DNA of 64,000 nt, from the sequence record SRR31156797_360. The stretch is one strand, 5' to 3'. The translations under genes and the position numbers were made by a program. The notes below the pieces were generated by a model, which worked only from the letters and a program-made list of their open reading frames with translations, did no database searches and was not told the origin of the DNA. This document shows, piece by piece, positions 2,023-56,343 of this stretch (the stretch's first letter is position 1; each line of letters begins with the position of its first letter).

Positions 2023-3454
2023 CGGACTTTCCATCAAAGGTTTCGATCTTGACGTAGATTTCGAAACTGATGTGAAAGATATCAATATTGACAGCAGGAA
2101 CCTGAAAAAGGATGCGCCATTTTTCGCATTCAAAGGTGCCTCTGTGGATTCACATGCATTTGCAAAAGCTGCCTACAAGAGTGGAAAAGTTCCATTTGTC
2201 GTAGCGGAGAAGCAGATAAAAGATGTGCCAACCGTTATTGTGGAAGATGGCCGTAAGGCTGTGGCAAATGCGTGCAGAAACTTTTTCGGAAGACCTGATG
2301 AAGAGATGGAAAAGATTGGTGTGACAGGAACAAACGGGAAGACTACTGTTTCATACATTATCAACTCCATCATGGAAACGGCAGGCAAAAAGCCTGTACT
2401 CGTCGGCACAACTGGCGTTATGTTTGAAGGCAAATTTATCGACCTCGACTCAACGACACCATCGCCATATGAGTTTTTCGAAGTGCTTAGAAAAGCTAAA
2501 GACGCAGGATGCGACACATTAGTGATGGAAGTTTCATCACACGCTCTGCATCAACATAGATTAAACGGTCTCGTCTTTGATGTTGCCATATTTACAAACC
2601 TATCCGGCGACCACCTCGACTATCATAATACAATGGAGGAATACTACGAGGCGAAGAAACTTCTTTTCACCACAGAGTATTGCAATGTTGGTGTGATAGG
2701 CAAAGACCACGAATACGGCGCTAGACTTATCAAAGAGGCAGAGATAGATAAGGTCTCTTACGGGCTTACTCCTAAGTCCGACGTTACAGCGGAAGAGATA
2801 TGGTTTGACCTTAATGGTCTCAAAGCAAAATTTGTATGTCCGACAGGAACAGTGGAAGTTAAGTCATCACTGGTAGGACTTCATAACCTTGAAAATCTTT
2901 TAGCCGCAACGGCTGGCTGTATCATGCTTGGACTTGATGCTTCTGATATTACAAAAGGTATTGAGCTTCTGCCTAATGTGCCGGGAAGGCTCGAAAAGTT
3001 TGAAAAATCTAACGGCGCATATGTGTTCGTTGATTACGCACATACAGATGATGCTCTTAGAAATGTTATAGAAGCTCTCAGCAGCTTTAAAGAGAATAAA
3101 CTTATTACAGTTTTCGGCTGCGGCGGCGACAGGGACAGAACTAAGCGCCCACGCATGGCAAAAGCGGCAGAAGCTGATTCAGATGTGGTTATCGTAACAA
3201 GCGACAACCCACGCACAGAAGATCCTCAGCAGATTATAAACGACATTCTCGAAGGTTTTGAAAACGCAGAGAGCGTTATCATCTCGCCTGACAGAAGTAT
3301 GGCTATAAAGCAGGCGGTATGTATGGCGGAAGCTGATGACATAGTGCTCATTGCTGGTAAAGGACATGAGGATTATATGATCCTCGGAACAGGGAAGATT
3401 CACTTCGACGACAGAGAAGAGGTGAAGAAACATCTGGAGGTAGGCGGATGCTAG
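2000..3454 (+). CDS. murE: UDP-MurNAc-tripeptide synthetase (meso-DAP type)
   Basis: GVTGTNGKTT P-loop, MEVSSH, DYAH, DNPR (DAP-specificity motif), GKGHE; start at ATG 2000 after AGGAG. Confidence 0.96.
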   Translation: MKVSQLLNGLSIKGFDLDVDFETDVKDINIDSRNLKKDAPFFAFKGASVDSHAFAKAAYKSGKVPFVVAEKQIKDVPTVIVEDGRKAVANACRNFFGRPDEEMEKIGVTGTNGKTTVSYIINSIMETAGKKPVLVGTTGVMFEGKFIDLDSTTPSPYEFFEVLRKAKDAGCDTLVMEVSSHALHQHRLNGLVFDVAIFTNLSGDHLDYHNTMEEYYEAKKLLFTTEYCNVGVIGKDHEYGARLIKEAEIDKVSYGLTPKSDVTAEEIWFDLNGLKAKFVCPTGTVEVKSSLVGLHNLENLLAATAGCIMLGLDASDITKGIELLPNVPGRLEKFEKSNGAYVFVDYAHTDDALRNVIEALSSFKENKLITVFGCGGDRDRTKRPRMAKAAEADSDVVIVTSDNPRTEDPQQIINDILEGFENAESVIISPDRSMAIKQAVCMAEADDIVLIAGKGHEDYMILGTGKIHFDDREEVKKHLEVGGC

Positions 3455-11692: not shown

Positions 11693-12376
11693 ATGGCAAA
11701 GAAAAAAGGGATTTTTAAATTTCTGGCAGTAACGGTCTTTTCACTGTTTACCGTCGGTCTGTTTGCAGCAGGCGTAACAGCCGGAGCTATAATGCTTTCA
11801 GACAGCGGCTATTTTAAAGTTAAGAGCGTGTATGTAAAAGGTGTTATTAAAGCTGACGAGGCTAAGGTTAAAGCCATGGTTAAGTCTATGGTGGGAAAGA
11901 GCATCTTTGACATAAAAAATAAAAACGTTGAAAACGTAGAAGATAATTGGGTCGAGCGTATGGAGATCAGGAAGGTATTTCCTGACAGGCTAGAGGTGGT
12001 AGTATTTGAGAAGACTCCGGTCTTTCAGCTTACTAACACTAAAGGCTGCTTTACAGCGACAGCGAGCGGGCTTCTCATCAAAGAGGACTGCAAGCAGGCA
12101 CAGGTTCACATGGAAAGCGGTGTGGATGAACAGGATTTCAGAGAGTTCATAAAGATTTATGAAGACACTGCAAACCTGAAAGAAGCCAGCGTCGAGCTTA
12201 AACAGTTTTATTTCACTGTAAATGACGGTGATATCAAAATACTGGGCAACTATAACAGAGAAGAGTTTGCAAAGCTTTTTGATGTTTATAAGAAGACTGT
12301 AAAGAGCAGATATAAGTCTATTGAATATGTAGATATGCGCATACCCGATAAAATATATGTGAAAGGGGTGATGTAA
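11693..12376 (+). CDS. ftsQ: Cell division protein FtsQ/DivIB
   Basis: N-terminal TM, POTRA-like segment (WVERMEIRKVFPDRLEVVVFEK), C-terminal YVDMR motif; overlaps the ftsA start. Confidence 0.88.
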   Translation: MAKKKGIFKFLAVTVFSLFTVGLFAAGVTAGAIMLSDSGYFKVKSVYVKGVIKADEAKVKAMVKSMVGKSIFDIKNKNVENVEDNWVERMEIRKVFPDRLEVVVFEKTPVFQLTNTKGCFTATASGLLIKEDCKQAQVHMESGVDEQDFREFIKIYEDTANLKEASVELKQFYFTVNDGDIKILGNYNREEFAKLFDVYKKTVKSRYKSIEYVDMRIPDKIYVKGVM

Positions 12377-13611
12377 TGGCAGGGGACAACATCTTTGTCG
12401 GTCTTGACTTTGGTACCACAAAAATATGTGTGGTTGTAGCCAACAAGAACGAGGACGGAAGTCTGGATATTATCGGACTGGGTAAAGCTCCCAGTGAAGG
12501 TATCCGCAGGGGTGTGGTCGTAAATATCGACACCACTGTTCAGAGCATCAGAGACGCAGTCGCAGAAGCGGAGCGTATGTCTGGTGTTCAGATTAAGCGA
12601 GGTACAGCGGGCATAGCCGGCGGTCACATAAAGAGTTTTAACCAGAGAGGAACTATCGCTGTTAAAGGCGGGCGTGAGATAACACAGAAAGATGTTGAAA
12701 GAGTTATCGAAACTGCAGCCGCAACTAACATTCAGGTGGGTAATGAGATACTCGCTATCCTGCCACAGCAGTTTATCCTTGATGGTCAGAGTGAGATCAA
12801 AGATCCGATAGGTATGACAGGTGTCAGGCTTGAAGCGGATGTGCATATAATCACCGGAGCTGTCTCCAGTGCGCAGAATATTGTGAAATCTTGCGAAAAA
12901 GCAGGAATTACTGTTGATGACATAGTTTTAGAGCAATTAGCCTCTTCAGAATCTGTGTTAAGTGACGATGAGAAAGAAATAGGTGTGTGCATTATTGACG
13001 GCGGAGGCGGAACATCTGATCTCGCTGTCTATAAACAAGGCGCAGTTTTTCATACAGCCGCTCTTCTTATCGGGGGAAGAAATTTCACAAAGGATCTCGC
13101 AATCGGGCTGAACACTCCTGAATCTGAGGCTGAAAAGCTGAAAGTTCAAAACGGATGTGTCTGGATGCCGCTTGTAGAGGAAGACGATCTCATAGAAGTT
13201 CCTACAGTGGGAGGACGTCCACCGAGAGAAGTTGGAAAACCTGTTGTAACACAGATACTTCAGGCTAGAGCTGAAGAAGTTTTCCAGATTTTTAAAGGAG
13301 AGCTCCAGTATAAAGGGCTTATGGATCACCTCGGTGCAGGGGTTGTCGTTACTGGCGGTCTTGCGAACCACGAAGGGATAGAGCATCTCGCAGCTGAGAT
13401 ACTTAATGTACCGGTAAGACTTGGCAGACCTGAGAAGGTAGGCGGGCTTGCAGATTACGTCACAGACCCTAAATACGCTACGGCGGTTGGGCTTGCGATG
13501 ATAGCAGCGAGAAAGGGACACCAGCAGGGTAACGTTCTTTCCGGCTCAGACGAGAAGGCATTTGGAAACGTACTCGGACGCATGAAGTCCTGGTTCGGAG
13601 AGTTCTTCTAA
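12376..13611 (+). CDS. ftsA: Cell division protein FtsA
   Basis: GLDFGTTKI, DGGGGTSD, VTGG actin-like motifs; amphipathic C-terminus (MKSWFGEFF). Confidence 0.97.
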   Translation: MAGDNIFVGLDFGTTKICVVVANKNEDGSLDIIGLGKAPSEGIRRGVVVNIDTTVQSIRDAVAEAERMSGVQIKRGTAGIAGGHIKSFNQRGTIAVKGGREITQKDVERVIETAAATNIQVGNEILAILPQQFILDGQSEIKDPIGMTGVRLEADVHIITGAVSSAQNIVKSCEKAGITVDDIVLEQLASSESVLSDDEKEIGVCIIDGGGGTSDLAVYKQGAVFHTAALLIGGRNFTKDLAIGLNTPESEAEKLKVQNGCVWMPLVEEDDLIEVPTVGGRPPREVGKPVVTQILQARAEEVFQIFKGELQYKGLMDHLGAGVVVTGGLANHEGIEHLAAEILNVPVRLGRPEKVGGLADYVTDPKYATAVGLAMIAARKGHQQGNVLSGSDEKAFGNVLGRMKSWFGEFF

Positions 13612-13917
13612 TAAAACCTACTTGCAGGTTAAATAAAGTGTGGAAGCTAGAATAGCCACACTAATAGGAAGATTTAGGTGCAGGACAGCACCTCGGACAA
13701 ATGAAATGCAGGACGGAAGACCTTTGTCTGACTTGTTAGACAAAGTCGCCTTTGAAATGGTCAGGACGAGTCATTTCAAAGCACTAATTGGTTATCAGCA
13801 CCCTACAAAGGGAATGATATAGATAGGCGCAGGATGTGCCGAAAAACAGCAAGGACGCACGTTTTCTTAATGAGCGTTAAGGATTTTTAGCAAAATGAGC
13901 TTTTGCAGGAGGACAAG
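13612..13917 (+). ncRNA. Candidate structured RNA or long leader with multiple GGA-loop hairpins (CsrB/Rsm-like)
   Basis: About nine consecutive hairpins; four have AGGAC, AGGAT, AGGACA or AAGGAC loops (13676-93, 13750-81, 13826-40, 13841-66), with further GGA motifs between them. Confidence 0.6.
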
Positions 13918-15051
13918 ATGGAATTCGAATTTGCAGAGATAGCTAGCAACGCAGTTATCAAAGTTGTAGGTGTTGGAGGCGCAGGCGGAAACGCAGTCAA
14001 CAACATGATCAACGCAGGCATAGAGGATGTCGACTTTATAGCGGCAAACACTGATGCTCAGGCACTCAAGGCGAACTTGGCTCCGGTCAAGATTCAGCTT
14101 GGAACCACAATAACAAGAGGTCTCGGTGCGGGCGGACACCCTGAAGTGGGTAGAAAGTCAGCTATCGAGGATATGGAAGCGATCGAAGAGCAGCTCAGAG
14201 GAGCTGATATGGTTTTCGTTACAGCAGGTATGGGGGGCGGAACAGGTACAGGCGCAGCACCGGTTATCGCTAGTATTGCCAAAGACCTGGGAGCACTCAC
14301 AGTTGCTGTAGTATCAAAACCTTTCGCTTTCGAAGGAAAGAAGAGAAACACATTTGCTGACCAAGGACTAAAATTCCTTAAAGAGCATGTTGACACATAT
14401 ATTACTGTCCATAACGACAAGATTCTGGACCAGTGCAAAGAGAACACTCTATTCGACGAAGCATTCAAGATGGCGGACGATGTCCTCCGTCAGGGTGTGC
14501 AGGGTATCTCTGATGCGATTAATTCCAGCGGTGTTGTGAACGTGGACTTTGCAGATATCCGTACTATCATGAGCTCCAAAGGTATGGCGCTTATGGGTAT
14601 CGGTTCCGGTACAGGGGAGAACAGAGACATTATTGCCGCAGAGCACGCTCTCAATTCTCCACTTATTACTGATGCTTCCATCGATGGTGCTGAGGCACTT
14701 CTCCTCAACATCACATGCGGTATGGACTTCCGTATGACTGAGATGGAAAACATCGCACTTAAGATTTACGAAGCTGCAGGTGAAGAGGCTAACATCTTTA
14801 AAGGTGTTGTTCTTGATCCTACTATCACTAACGGTGAGATAAGAGTTACAGTTGTCGCTACTGGTCTTGGGAAATCACGAGACAAAAAGCCTGTAGACAT
14901 TGAAGGGTTTGCAGAGAAAGCGACTGGTGGCAACGACATCAAAAGAACTCTCGGCAGCATTAGAAAGAACGATCACAGGTTAAAAACTCTGTCTGATTTT
15001 AATGAAGAGGAATCCGAACTTCCGGCTTACCTCAGAAATCAGGCGGATTAA
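13918..15051 (+). CDS. ftsZ: Cell division GTPase FtsZ
   Basis: [25 protein letters not shown]-terminal LPAYLR peptide; ATG 13918 after AGGAGG. Confidence 0.98.
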
Positions 15052-15062
15052 AAGAGTACGAG

Positions 15063-16109
15063 GTGCGTATCCTTAACGTGATAAACGTAAGGTGGTTTAA
15101 CGCAACTGCCTGGTATGCCGTCAACCTTTCATCAGTCCTCAAGCGCAGAGGGCACGATGTCGTTGTGTGCGGACTACCTGGCACACCTCCTGTCCTTAAA
15201 GCTCAAGGTGTTGGCCTCGAAACTTTCGAGGCCAATATCAACAAATCTGACCCGTTCAGAGCACTGGCGGCGATGGGAGCTATGGACAAGTTGCTAATGA
15301 GTTTCGAACCGGACATTGTCATATGCCACCGGGGCGAATTCTACTGGTACTTTGCGTATAAACGCATAACCAGGCAGAAGTATAAGCTTATCCGTGTCAG
15401 AGGGGATATTCGTCCGCCGAAAGACGGAAAGCTGAACCGTATGTTCCACAACAAATGCACCGACGCAATAGTTACGTCCGGTCAGTTCATCAAAAAACAA
15501 TACATGGATATCTTAGGAACGCCAGAGATCGGCATCACAGTTAATCATGGCGGAGTGGATACTGAGATATTCAAACCTAGCAGTTTCTCCAGGATAAAAC
15601 TGAGAGACGAGTTTGGTTACGGTGATGATGATTTTGTGGTCGGCATAGTAGGAAGGTTCGACCCGATCAAAGGTCATGAGAACCTAATCAGAGCAGTGTC
15701 TAAGCTTTACAACAACGGCAGAAAGGATATCAGGCTCCTTATAGCTGGTTTCGATGCTGTGAGCACAACTGCGGACATTGAAAAGATGCTGGATGAGCAT
15801 GGTGTAAGAGATATATCAATTATCACCGGTAAACGTGACGACATTGAGGAGATATATAACTGTCTCGATGTTTGTGTGGTCTCATCACTCGGCTCTGAGG
15901 CGATTTGCAGAGTGGGTATGGAGGCGATGGCTTGCGGTGTGCCGATCATTACTTCTGACACAGGCGTGTTGCCTGAGATTTCGAAAAACGTCTATCCTAA
16001 GGACGACTGGGAAGCTCTTGCCGAACTACTTACTGACTTCGACAAGACGACTACAACCTACAGCCTAGATTATCTGGCTGATACTTTCGAGAAATACCTT
16101 AAAAAGTAA
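15063..16109 (+). CDS. Glycosyltransferase family 4 (GT-B)
   Basis: VGRFDPIKGHENL and SEAICRVGMEAMACGVP (E-x7-E) motifs; GTG start. Confidence 0.88.
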   Translation: MRILNVINVRWFNATAWYAVNLSSVLKRRGHDVVVCGLPGTPPVLKAQGVGLETFEANINKSDPFRALAAMGAMDKLLMSFEPDIVICHRGEFYWYFAYKRITRQKYKLIRVRGDIRPPKDGKLNRMFHNKCTDAIVTSGQFIKKQYMDILGTPEIGITVNHGGVDTEIFKPSSFSRIKLRDEFGYGDDDFVVGIVGRFDPIKGHENLIRAVSKLYNNGRKDIRLLIAGFDAVSTTADIEKMLDEHGVRDISIITGKRDDIEEIYNCLDVCVVSSLGSEAICRVGMEAMACGVPIITSDTGVLPEISKNVYPKDDWEALAELLTDFDKTTTTYSLDYLADTFEKYLKK

Positions 16110-16110
16110 T

Positions 16111-17238
16111 TTAGAACATCAACATATCAAAACATAGGTGATAGTTTTTACCATCATCAGTCTTAAGCAGGTTAAGGTCTGACAGTTTCTTTATGTCTCG
16201 TCTCGCTGTCTGTTCTGTAACATCCTTATATAAATATACAAATGGCTTTTCTGTATGAAGCCCCGCCAGTGATATTTCTACATCCTCATCCATCATAAGC
16301 TGAATAAGGTCGTACTGACGTCCGTTCAGGTCGCCATCATTTTTCATTATAGTCAGAAACTCACGCATAGTCAGGTCGTAGAGGTAGCCGTAAACACGGT
16401 TCTTAAGTTCATCCAGACAGCTGTTAACTGCCTCAAGAACAAAGAGGAGGAAAGGAGTGGTATCTTTGCTCTTTCGTTTCGTTTGTGAGAAGGATAGGAA
16501 GTATCTGTCCTGGTTTTTGTAGTAGTAGCCAGCGAGCATTTTAGCGACGTGGCGGATGTTAGCGGCGTGGAGGATATAAGCCTCAAGGAGCCTAGCCGTT
16601 CGACCATTGCCGGAGAAGAATGGGTGAATGAGTGAGAGGTGATAATGTGCGAGTGAAGCTCTGATAAAAGGAGGTGTACTAAGAAGCTCTTCGCTGTTAA
16701 TCCACTCGATAAAATTCTTCATAAGGTGCTCGATGTCGTTCAGTGTCGAAGGTGGTCTGTAAACACCGCCGTGCTGCTCTGAACCGACCTTTACAAGTCT
16801 ATCTCTGTATGCCCCGGGTGTGTTGCCTGTATATGTGAGTTCTTTGGTTAGTGAGTTGTGCAGTTCTTTTATGAAATCTTCGGTGATTATAAGATTTTTC
16901 CCTTCTGATTCGAAATTATCAAGTGTTTCGTAAGCAGCAATGAGATTTTCAACCTCTATTTTGTGATTAAGTGAATAACTTTCAACGTCTTTTTTATCAA
17001 TTACAGCACGAATATCCTGTTCAGTGTATGGGTTTCCATCAATTGCGGCTGTTCCAGTGATGGATGTTGCGATGATCTCAGTGTCGATATCAGATGCCTG
17101 CTGAGGAAGCATAGGTATGTCAGATATCGTTGTATTAAGGATTTCAGCCCTGTTGATTAAGTCGTTTAATATCTTCTTATCAAAGGAATCGCTAAACATA
17201 AATACTTTCGAAGTAGCCGTAACTTTTTTACTAACCAT
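16111..17238 (-). CDS. Fic-domain protein with C-terminal winged HTH
   Basis: HPFFSGNGRTAR Fic motif, PGAYR, N-terminal TAAIDGN inhibitory-like helix, C-terminal 'TEQTARRDIKKL' DeoR-like HTH. Confidence 0.9.
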   Translation of the reverse strand: MVSKKVTATSKVFMFSDSFDKKILNDLINRAEILNTTISDIPMLPQQASDIDTEIIATSITGTAAIDGNPYTEQDIRAVIDKKDVESYSLNHKIEVENLIAAYETLDNFESEGKNLIITEDFIKELHNSLTKELTYTGNTPGAYRDRLVKVGSEQHGGVYRPPSTLNDIEHLMKNFIEWINSEELLSTPPFIRASLAHYHLSLIHPFFSGNGRTARLLEAYILHAANIRHVAKMLAGYYYKNQDRYFLSFSQTKRKSKDTTPFLLFVLEAVNSCLDELKNRVYGYLYDLTMREFLTIMKNDGDLNGRQYDLIQLMMDEDVEISLAGLHTEKPFVYLYKDVTEQTARRDIKKLSDLNLLKTDDGKNYHLCFDMLMF

Positions 17239-17344
17239 ATGTCACCTCACTTGTAATATAAAATGTAAACTCATTAATTAATCACCACAGTTATTTATAT
17301 ACCAATTTCTGATATAAATGTAAAGTAAAATAACATAATAAATG

Positions 17345-17371
17345 TAAAGTATTTTGTAAATATGCCGATAC
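17345..17371 (+). promoter_or_regulatory. Putative sigma28 (FliA) promoter
   Basis: TAAA-N15-GCCGATAC (TAAAGTAT...GCCGATAC) versus consensus TAAAGTTT-N11-GCCGATAA. Confidence 0.55.
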
Positions 17372-17450
17372 TATAATTAAGTTGAATAACAGTGGTTTAG
17401 CTAAACACTAATTTGAAGAGTTACTTAGATTGAAAGATAAAATGTAAGAC

Positions 17451-17498
17451 GAGGTGTAAATATAAAAGTAAAAAGAGGTGTAAATATAATAGTAAAAA
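17451..17498. repeat. 24-bp tandem direct repeat (2 copies) within a 12-bp-periodic array
   Basis: GAGGTGTAAATATAAAAGTAAAAA / GAGGTGTAAATATAATAGTAAAAA, one mismatch. Confidence 0.85.
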
Positions 17499-17605
17499 GT
17501 GTATCAGATTAACTAATCGCCATTAAAAATCCATAAAAATGCGGTTACAGGGGATTAAGCTCAGCTTCTGCAACCGCACCTTTCCTCATTTCTGAAAGTT
17601 TCGTA

Positions 17606-17633
17606 TTGATTATCTGACATTTTTACATATAAT
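17606..17633 (+). promoter_or_regulatory. Putative sigma70 promoter of tRNA-Ala
   Basis: TTGATT-16bp-TATAAT ending 13 bp before the tRNA. Confidence 0.55.
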
Positions 17634-17646
17634 GATTTTTCGTTTT

Positions 17647-17719
17647 GGGGGTATAGCTCAGCTGGGAGAGCGCAACACTGGCAGTGTTGAGGTCAGCGGT
17701 TCGATCCCGCTTACCTCCA
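17647..17719 (+). tRNA. tRNA-Ala (anticodon GGC), CCA not encoded
   Basis: Acceptor GGGGGTA/TACCTCC with G3:U70, D-arm GCTCAGCTGGGAGAGC, anticodon arm CAACA-CTGGCAG-TGTTG, T-loop GGTTCGATCCC, discriminator A. Confidence 0.97.
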
Positions 17720-17975
17720 TTTTTAATCTAGTTTATTAGCAACAGTTTGCGGTTTCTTTGTTTTGTTGGGGGATAAAGCGGGGATACTTTTTTCCAGATT
17801 GACTTTAAATATAGCTCTAAGTTTGTTGATGAATACGAAGAGTACGCTCGATTATTCCATTTTATTATCATTTTTTTTTAAGCCCTAAATACTTATCATA
17901 TAAATCATTTAATTTTTAATATTACATATACGTCTCAAATAATCAAAATTCAATTGTTTTTGGATAATTAACCGC

Positions 17976-17994
17976 TTATAATAATAATTATCAA
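17976..17994. promoter_or_regulatory. Fur/PerR-family box upstream of katG
   Basis: TAATAAT-A-ATTATCA (17979-93) has one mismatch to the TGATAAT-N-ATTATCA 7-1-7 motif and overlaps a TATAAT hexamer. Confidence 0.5.
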
Positions 17995-18016
17995 GAAGAC
18001 TTGCGTTTAATTTTAA

Positions 18017-20218
<2,202 letters not shown>

Positions 20219-55707: not shown

Positions 55708-56343
55708 TTACGCTAATGATGTTTCTACTGAATTGTTGATGTTCGCCATGTAGTTGTCAAATTTTTCCATTGTGGCGTTATAAGTGTTATAGCTTATCTC
55801 AGGAAGCTGACCTCCGAAGAGAGCCTCCGCCTGCTTAAATCCCTTAGTTACAGCTTCTTTTGCTTTAGCCATCTCTTCAGGGTTATCACCCGTATACGCT
55901 TTAGCGAAGTCAAACATCCTTTGTGATGTCTTCTCAACACCCCAGTATCCATCGTCGGAAAGCATCTGGTCAAGCTCAGACTTAACGTCCTCTAGTGTTT
56001 CGCCTTCCGTCATTTCGATAGTTATATTAATACTTGTGTAGCTTACAGAAAACCTGCCCGCCTGTGAGGACATGGTGTTTGCTGAGTGTTCTGCGATCTT
56101 TTCGAGAACTTCGCTAACAGTTTCCATAACATAAGCTTTGATGTCTTCGACCGGAGAGTGGCCTTCTGACATGATTGACAAAACATCAGAAAAGTTAGTG
56201 GATTTCTCTTGAGGTTTTGCTTCTGTTGATTGCAAATTTTCTTTGCTGGCAGTATCTTGACCGTCCTTGGTCTTGGTCGACTGCTCGTTTGAGTAACTAT
56301 AGCGCAAATTTACTGTCTGGGCGCTGACATTACTTACATACAT
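55708..56343 (-). CDS. Conserved hypothetical protein (DUF5610-like)
   Basis: C-terminal DGYWGVEKTSQRMFDFA..GFKQAE..FGGQLPEISYNTY motif familiar from uncharacterised proteins; SD GAGGAG. Confidence 0.65.
   Translation of the reverse strand: MYVSNVSAQTVNLRYSYSNEQSTKTKDGQDTASKENLQSTEAKPQEKSTNFSDVLSIMSEGHSPVEDIKAYVMETVSEVLEKIAEHSANTMSSQAGRFSVSYTSINITIEMTEGETLEDVKSELDQMLSDDGYWGVEKTSQRMFDFAKAYTGDNPEEMAKAKEAVTKGFKQAEALFGGQLPEISYNTYNATMEKFDNYMANINNSVETSLA

Follow-up and report, generated by a model that had tools for sequence, protein, structure and literature searches.

Predicted long-range pairing of the ftsZ ribosome-binding site with an invariant anti-Shine-Dalgarno element in the downstream gene of Deferribacterota

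Introduction

Masking of a ribosome-binding site by a distant segment of the same RNA is familiar from RNA phages such as MS2, in which the masking segment is a distant coding sequence and the site is opened by the ribosomes translating that segment. Another kind of leader control depends on CsrA and its antagonist FliW and is known from B. subtilis hag and C. jejuni flaA; flagellin mRNA is the classic target of the FliW-CsrA pair. A CsrA dimer can reach between GGA sites that lie 10-63 nt apart. In FliW-type CsrA systems the antagonist is a protein, and we know of no sponge RNA established for them. As for the division gene ftsZ, the level of its product sets the timing of bacterial division, and to our knowledge its post-transcriptional control is known from only a few model organisms.

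A cellular case of SD masking is icaR of Staphylococcus aureus. As reported, an anti-Shine-Dalgarno (anti-SD) motif, UCCCCUG, located downstream of the ORF pairs with the Shine-Dalgarno (SD) sequence of the same gene (PMC3868564), and this pairing blocks initiation and yields an RNase III substrate (PMC3868564; Ruiz de los Mozos et al. 2013). In hbs of Bacillus subtilis, a 14-bp pairing of the 5' UTR with the 3' UTR is reported to modulate RNase Y cleavage in the leader (PMC5737220; Braun, Durand, Condon 2017).

In this work we analyzed the ftsA-ftsZ spacer of a Denitrovibrio-like member of the Deferribacterota. The original prediction regarded it either as a CsrB/Rsm-like RNA with multiple GGA hairpins or as a large CsrA-controlled ftsZ leader. 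Our analysis points to an icaR-like arrangement, in which the ftsZ ribosome-binding site is probably masked by an element located within the next gene of the operon.

Results

The ftsA-ftsZ spacer and its hairpins

The window (the whole stretch of DNA analyzed, 64,000 nt in length) has a G+C content of 43% and contains the dcw cluster murG, murC, ddl, ftsQ, ftsA and ftsZ, followed by a gene for a GT4-family glycosyltransferase. Its FtsZ is 92-93% identical to those of three Denitrovibrio/Deferribacterales MAGs and 84-86% identical to those of Seleniivibrio-like genomes. The ftsA gene (12376-13611, + strand; Pfam FtsA and SHS2_FTSA) ends 306 nt before the ATG of ftsZ (13918-15051, + strand; Pfam Tubulin and FtsZ_C), and the spacer of 13612-13917 is thus as long as had been claimed. 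The glycosyltransferase gene (15063-16109, + strand) starts with GTG 12 nt past the ftsZ stop, is preceded by a poor SD and is syntenic in most Deferribacterota loci.

Some other features of the window were also noted. A Fic/DOC-domain protein with a weak C-terminal HTH is encoded at 16111-17238 on the - strand, convergently to the glycosyltransferase gene. Two stretches are free of long ORFs, one of 661 nt (2518-3178) located upstream of the mur genes and a gap of 793 nt (17239-18031) with one tRNA inside (17647-17719).

Folding revealed seven local hairpins in the spacer, all given here for the + strand, in agreement with the predicted run of stem-loops. Hairpin 0 (13637-13662; -9.1 kcal/mol, z -3.4) has a 7-bp stem and a 12-nt loop without GGA. 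It is followed by hairpin 1 with the loop AGGACA (13676-13693; -9.2 kcal/mol, z -2.9), a near-palindromic hairpin without GGA in the loop (13719-13747; -11.7 kcal/mol, z -3.5), hairpin 2 with the loop AGGAC (13748-13782; -11.8 kcal/mol, z -2.8), a hairpin with GGA on its 3' side and none in the loop (13793-13819; -8.6 kcal/mol, z -2.5), hairpin 3 of the structure GGCGC-AGGAU-GUGCC (13826-13840; -8.2 kcal/mol, z -2.7) and hairpin 4 with the loop AAGGAC (13841-13866; -4.1 kcal/mol, z -0.6). Hence, three of the four hairpins originally credited with a GGA loop are stable, while hairpin 4 is thermodynamically weak (46 of 200 shuffles fold equally well). Further GGA motifs had been noted between the hairpins, and the fold and a motif scan place one of them, CAGGACG, in a single-stranded stretch at 13709-13715 (+ strand).

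The enrichment of GGA was borne out by comparison with dinucleotide shuffles. The spacer contains 13 GGA against 6.5 +/- 1.8 expected, a count reached in 0 of 2000 shuffles, and seven of them lie in the loop of a stem of at least 4 bp (1.9 +/- 1.3 expected; 4/2000 shuffles). With the SD left out, the number of GGA in loops is five against 1.6 (p 0.012, 1000 shuffles). Over both strands of the window, the densest 300-nt cluster of GGA-loop hairpins coincides with the spacer (6 against a background of ~0.6). The motif CAGGAHG is found three times in the spacer, with 33 matches over both strands of the window. The fold of the whole spacer is more stable on the + strand (-85.7 kcal/mol, z -3.5) than on the - strand (-74.8 kcal/mol, z -2.7).

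Part of this pattern can be traced to internal repeats. Hairpins 1 and 3 are paralogues with the common repeat TAGGYGCAGGA (13675-85 and 13824-34), so the number of independent GGA-loop events is smaller than the number of hairpins. A segment within ftsA (13573-93) recurs at 13692-712 with 76% identity, and 13670-87 resembles the SD region (13898-915) with 72% identity; further repeats link 13659-68 with 13782-91 and 13869-78 with 13894-903. These repeats show that the spacer has been enlarged by duplication of nearby segments, among them the 3' end of ftsA and the SD region. It is therefore well conceivable, though short of an even chance, that the upstream hairpins are neutral or represent generic mRNA structure that at most stabilizes or punctuates the dcw mRNA, and that tandem duplication of the ftsA-end and SD segments multiplied GGA. 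The free variation of the spacer among relatives (see below) agrees with this explanation. However, duplication does not explain why GGA is placed in loops, nor the preservation of the loop and pairing of hairpin 2 in the closest relative.

The spacer in related genomes

In the 12 closest relatives the spacer measures 123-211 nt and cannot be aligned in its upstream part; in ten further Deferribacterota loci (L010-L017, L020, L021) only 15-18 nt separate ftsA from ftsZ. After removal of the near-duplicates L008 and L093, the remaining 10 of the 12 spacers were enriched neither in GGA (34 counted, 35.5 expected) nor in hairpins with a GGA loop (13 counted, 11.1 expected; p 0.31). Hairpin 2 recurs in the closest relative, L001, where the central 20 nt are common, the loop is identical and one pair has changed in a compensatory manner (A-U to G-C). 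Apart from this case, conservation of the upstream hairpins among the relatives was not seen. A search for the hairpin-2 loop pattern GGTCAGGACGA in five related genomes was uninformative, since it gave 7 matches and the reversed-pattern control also gave 7. No Pfam family was found for the small spacer ORFs (60 aa on the + strand and 41 aa on the - strand), which lie in a region not conserved in relatives. Thus, the GGA-rich upstream hairpins are real but appear to be a lineage-specific expansion that arose partly by local duplication.

Two side observations concern the relatives themselves. The spacers of L007 (2849-2940), L009 (2860-2930) and L086 (1095-1180) contain G/C-run hairpins of the CCCCUC...GAGGGG and GGGAGG/CCUCCC types, which resemble dispersed repeats and do not occur in the window. 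In L003, L092 and L093, the ftsZ gene has an in-frame stop 89-95 codons from the aligned ATG, and tblastn aligns the whole protein; in these MAG or metagenome records the stop is probably due to a frameshift or an assembly error.

Relation of the spacer to the Csr system

In its repeated CAGGA(N)G-type motifs in hairpin loops the spacer resembles the CsrB/CsrC/RsmX/Y/Z RNAs (Rfam CL00106). It differs from them in failing their Rfam models, in lacking a promoter and a terminator of its own by consensus scan, in its position inside an operon and in its occurrence in a FliW-type lineage. The best covariance-model alignment, to RsmY (13819-13906), reached only 13.7 bits (E 0.97) against a gathering score of 57, and over the whole window only a tRNA passes the Rfam gathering thresholds. 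The consensus scan of 13300-14100 gave 0 promoter-like sites on the + strand and 0 terminator-like sites. We consider it very improbable that the array at ~13637-13866 is made or processed as a discrete, CsrA-titrating RNA. Several GGA loops within ~230 nt, partly derived from duplicated units as in CsrB-type RNAs, and the weak RsmY-like alignment speak for such a sponge; yet the hairpin array is absent from the closest relatives, and the antagonist of CsrA in FliW-type systems is a protein.

A csrA gene (PF02599) is present in 5/5 related genomes, and a fliW-csrA pair was seen in L083. The 64-kb window itself contains no csrA. A 14.7-kb contig from the DNA run that holds 100% of the sampled words of the window aligns to the csrA-fliW of the nearest relative with ~85% identity, and the differences are spaced by three. 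Since this contig of the likely source run covers homologues of both csrA and fliW, the Csr interpretation cannot be dismissed for want of csrA. In sum, the CsrB/CsrA prediction is partly supported. In its favor are the GGA-loop pattern, the presence of csrA-fliW, the similar hairpins of flagellin leaders (see below) and the recurrence of hairpin 2 in L001; Rfam membership, a promoter or terminator and conservation of the array were not found. The spacer looks like the ftsZ 5' leader of a dcw operon mRNA and not like a CsrB-type sRNA gene, and the CsrB-like label is unwarranted.

The second form of the prediction is a multi-site ftsZ leader controlled by CsrA. Here CsrA dimers would occupy the SD GGA, the AAGGA located 27 nt 5' of it and the GGA loops of hairpins 1-4 and thereby repress ftsZ translation; FliW freed upon flagellin export would lift the repression and couple division to flagellar assembly. 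The leader has a GGA overlapping the SD (13908/13911) and another within the reach of a CsrA dimer (13881, 27 nt apart), with more GGA at 13853 and 13832, so that the 3' sites are spaced by 21, 28 and 27 nt. The excess of GGA and of GGA in loops over shuffles, the csrA-fliW genes of the relatives and of the source run, and the compensatory pair of hairpin 2 in L001 point in the same direction. Besides, site 1 (described below) lies in a hairpin loop on unrelated stems in the window, L002, L003 and L092/L093.

The flagellin leaders of the relatives provide a comparison. Lying behind sigma-28-like promoters, they combine a GGAGG SD with a short G/C stem whose loop is A(A)GGA(U/C), and hairpins 3 and 4 of the spacer are of the same type, very like the gcAAGGAugc-type hairpins of these leaders. 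The ftsZ leader is therefore similar to those of hag, flaA and the flagellin genes of the clade in having a short GGA-loop hairpin upstream of an SD GGA and a csrA-fliW operon in the genome; it is unlike hag and flaA in that the target would be ftsZ and that the predicted sites, up to nine in number, are unconserved in relatives. A covariance model (R1) of 11 flagellin-leader hairpins from relatives recovered only hairpin 4 in the spacer (11.4 bits, E ~1.1), as the third of 14 matches in the window at E up to 10; the best match fell in a coding region (56254-56277, minus strand). This model was rejected as a discriminator for being too short. The flagellin genes of the relatives G001-G004 (L166, L168-L174, L176) are unusually long, with open frames of ~760-820 aa.

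Several observations stand against CsrA control: the lack of GGA or hairpin enrichment in the relatives' spacers, the single marginal match of the flagellin-hairpin model, and the common origin of hairpins 1 and 3, which leaves fewer independent events. The GGA of the SD is kept in 13/13 genomes and that of site 1 in 11/13, with GGU, not GGA, in L004 and L005. These conserved GGAs of the relatives, at the SD and 27 nt 5' of it, are explained at least equally well by complementarity to the invariant downstream anti-SD described below. No description of CsrA control of ftsZ was found in the literature, as judged by titles and abstract openings. Taken together, a CsrA-controlled leader is possible but less likely than not; it does not conflict with long-range pairing, to which its effect could be added. 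As extra CsrA sites, the upstream GGA hairpins are plausible.

The SD module and its upstream copy

Alignment of the last ~90 nt of 13 leaders (the window and 12 long-spacer relatives; alignment A2) revealed conserved columns at GAGCU, at the SD AGGAGG and at an upstream AAGG(A). The conserved core of the spacer thus seems to be its last ~50 nt, composed of GAGCU..AAGGA and of GAGCUU..CAGGAGG, the latter being the ribosome-binding site. We call the second unit the SD module (GAGCUUUUGCAGGAGG, 13897-13912, + strand); its GAGCU and AGGAGG are invariant or nearly so in the 13 genomes. The first unit, site 1 (GAGCGUUAAGGAU, 13872-13884, + strand), is a degenerate upstream copy of the module, as judged from the repeat, the alignment and its rank in pairing. 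Depending on the leader, 1 to 5 nt separate GAGCUU from CAGGAGG.

The motif GAGCT-N2-8-AGGAGG was searched for in four relatives and gave 38 matches against 16 in the control. Only two of its locations recur, namely the ftsZ leader (3 genomes; G003 has AGGATG) and the antisense of the downstream 21-mer considered in the next section (all 4). The scan found no sigma-70 promoter on the + strand; by eye, the relatives have an A/T-rich TATA-like box 5' of the first GAGC and no consistent -35. A sigma-54 reading of UUGCA (13902-06) was rejected, as the GG-N10-GC spacing fails.

An invariant anti-SD element downstream of ftsZ

A search with the SD module led to a perfect reverse complement of it within the glycosyltransferase gene (15186-15204, + strand). 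The complete element is an invariant 21-mer (15184-15204, + strand) occupying codons 41-47 (T P P V L K A) of this gene, on the same strand as the SD, 135 nt past the ftsZ stop and 1.27 kb from the SD. Its core 19-mer (15186-15204) is unchanged in the window and in 12/12 long-spacer relatives, while the flanking codons vary. In a 3.35-kb alignment of the 13 genomes, the 21-mer is the longest invariant run, followed by runs of 11 nt and then 8 nt, and elsewhere the third codon position is unchanged in just 7% of the codons of ftsZ and 10% of those of the glycosyltransferase gene. The reverse complement of the 21-mer matches exactly the conserved leader parts of A2, GAGCU and AGGAGG.

On the minus strand, 15204-15186 looks like site 1 and the SD module perfectly fused, a feature kept in G001-G004, which could indicate a DNA-level inverted repeat flanking ftsZ (for protein binding or recombination) or a minus-strand gene or RNA with the same ribosome-binding module. 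We regard this as extremely unlikely. The two halves are 1-5 nt apart in the leaders and at a fixed distance in the 21-mer; this speaks against a DNA site, which would not tolerate such variation, unlike an internal loop of an RNA. Inverting the segment would disrupt the reading frame of the glycosyltransferase. The idea of a minus-strand gene or RNA was rejected because no start codon is conserved after the SD-like motif (a GUG abuts it in the window, UGA in L004).

A strong hairpin of 9-10 bp, GGCCUCGAAAC UUUCGAGGCC, is located in the glycosyltransferase coding sequence 8 nt past the anti-SD (15213-15233, + strand) and may present or stabilize the latter. The 11 clade members of A3 retain it with compensatory changes (e.g., A-U to C-G in L093); elsewhere in the Deferribacterota it is much weaker.

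Long-range pairing of the leader with the anti-SD

The duplex predicted between 13897-13912 and 15184-15204 consists of two helices of 7-8 bp separated by an internal loop, with an energy of -21 to -25 kcal/mol; in the second helix GAGCUUU pairs with AAAGCUC. This pairing is part of the global minimum-energy fold of the ~1.43-kb RNA in 3/5 genomes (the window, with 16 bp, L004 and L016), is partial in L007 and absent in L010. No terminator-like site is predicted between ftsA and the anti-SD.

We then compared each leader (-30..+3) with every 26-nt window of its own 3.5-7-kb locus. The best partner in the zone from -60 to +300 of the ftsZ stop, a zone chosen after a first scan had been seen, took rank 1 in 18, rank 2 in 6 and rank 3 in 2 of the 29 Deferribacterota loci, so that 26/29 had a zone rank of at most 3; in the other three (L012, L087 and L018) the rank was 7, 5 and 18. 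Among 49 ftsZ loci of other phyla, rank 1, 2 and 3 were found in 3, 3 and 1 cases, with a median rank of 10; this control was scanned at step 2, and some of its start codons are doubtful automatic picks. The 29 loci include many close relatives and correspond to only ~8 distinct types of leader/partner sequence. In three of the ~8 types the partner is located elsewhere: at -17 (L014, L015, L089), at +189/196 (L012, L087, L020) or at +286 (L019). A partner at +100 relative to the ftsZ stop was seen in some lineage, and in L003, where the SD is AGGAUG, the best partner is a different site.

The leader and its partner change together. In the clade of the window the SD AGGAGG is accompanied by CCU CCU; in the Deferribacter-like loci L010, L011 and L021, GGGGGUGAGC corresponds to GC UCA CCC CC; in L016, CGGGGGUGUG corresponds to C ACA CCC CCG; and in L090/L091, GGGGGUAAUAC corresponds to GU AUU ACC UCU. 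In 20 loci, the pair between the middle SD base and the third position of Pro codon 42 is A:U in 11 cases, G:C in four and G:U in three, and is broken in two. Duplexes of leader and partner from the same lineage average -23.3 kcal/mol, against -18.1 +/- 4.0 kcal/mol for swapped lineages. Within the leaders, the best partner of the anti-SD is the SD module in 11/12 genomes, and site 1 comes second or third. The central UCCUU of the 21-mer, unpaired in the SD duplex, is explained only by an alternative pairing with site 1.

As in icaR, there is a downstream pyrimidine-rich motif complementary to the SD region of the same gene, ranking first in the 7-kb locus, and both conservation and compensatory change are observed (the 21-mer, the codon covariation, and rank 1 in 18/29 against 3/49 loci). 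The complementarity is invariant within the clade of the window, covaries between lineages and is specific to the phylum. From this complementarity, the constraint at the nucleotide level, the covariation and the phylum specificity we infer that icaR-like long-range pairing probably masks the ftsZ ribosome-binding site. Our confidence is moderate because of the displaced partners, the roughly eight independent types and the fact that part of the complementarity is cheap, since the Pro-Pro motif supplies CCNCC free. Thermodynamics alone does not single out the pair: in the 64-kb stretch, the leader takes only 5th place as a partner of the 19-mer among 63,977 + strand windows.

We also considered the upstream hairpins as decoys of the anti-SD. 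Three upstream sites pair with it at -14 kcal/mol or below (1.7 +/- 1.1 expected; 29/150 shuffles reach this number) and two at -16 kcal/mol or below (0.8 expected; 25/150 shuffles). A decoy role thus had no support beyond composition and was rejected.

Discussion

The arrangement described here suggests a mechanism in which the SD module (13897-13912) would base-pair with the anti-SD (15184-15204) on one dcw mRNA, looping out the entire ftsZ cistron and masking the SD. If both parts share a transcript and the duplex forms in vivo, masking would probably lower ftsZ translation, and the duplex may constitute an RNase III-type substrate, as in icaR. Ribosomes passing the early glycosyltransferase codons would open the duplex. 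As only 12 nt lie between the two genes, such ribosomes are probably coupled to termination on ftsZ; ribosomes that end ftsZ and re-initiate on the glycosyltransferase would melt the duplex, so that translated mRNAs would stay open and idle ones locked. Site 1 (13872-84) could offer the anti-SD an alternative partner and thereby free the SD. The pairing would not need the upstream GGA hairpins, and nothing conserved requires them; the excess of GGA in their loops is left unexplained by the pairing model. CsrA binding to these hairpins may be an add-on that would tie ftsZ translation to the FliW-CsrA flagellar circuit.

Both elements can be combined in a single, more ambitious scheme, which we consider unlikely as a whole. 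According to it, the ftsZ RNA loop is common to the Deferribacterota, with the anti-SD written into synonymous positions of Pro-Pro codons; FtsZ synthesis is gated by ribosomes of the downstream cistron, which would make each mRNA a self-reinforcing on/off switch; and CsrA sites in the Denitrovibrio lineage would link division to the FliW-CsrA checkpoint of flagellar assembly.

The proposed ftsZ pairing, which we favor, is similar to that reported for icaR in that a C/U-rich motif 3' of the ORF (here CCUCCUG) is complementary to the SD of the same mRNA. It is unlike icaR in several respects: the anti-SD is part of the coding region of the following operon gene, in Pro-Pro codons 1.27 kb from the SD; the predicted pairing has a second helix, GAGCUUU with AAAGCUC; it concerns ftsZ, an essential division gene; and it is conserved, with covariation, throughout a phylum. 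With hbs it has in common the pairing of two cistron ends over a distance, tied to translation initiation and RNase access; in the excerpts of the hbs report used here, the pairing is not described as masking the SD, and the partner is in a true 3' UTR. MS2 differs from the ftsZ locus in being a phage genome and not a cellular operon, and in the order of the partners.

Thus, the SD:anti-SD principle is known from icaR. What is new is the ftsZ target, the position of the partner within a downstream ORF, the additional helix and the covariation over the phylum. As judged by titles and abstract openings, we found no description linking ftsZ to an anti-SD or to a long-range interaction, and the pairing of leader and anti-SD suggests a new way of controlling FtsZ synthesis. 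The comparative evidence makes it directly testable by synonymous and compensatory mutations. It should be added that the GGA richness of a leader can have causes unrelated to CsrA, a reason for caution in assigning CsrA targets by motif. Should CsrA indeed bind the lineage-specific hairpins, FliW-CsrA and ftsZ would be linked for the first time, as far as our literature search shows (titles and abstract openings). If the pairing itself is real, it would be a rare cellular case of SD:anti-SD control acting over more than 1 kb, of a kind shown so far for icaR, and a conserved long-range RNA interaction would both mask the ftsZ ribosome-binding site of Deferribacterota and constrain the synonymous sites of the neighboring gene.
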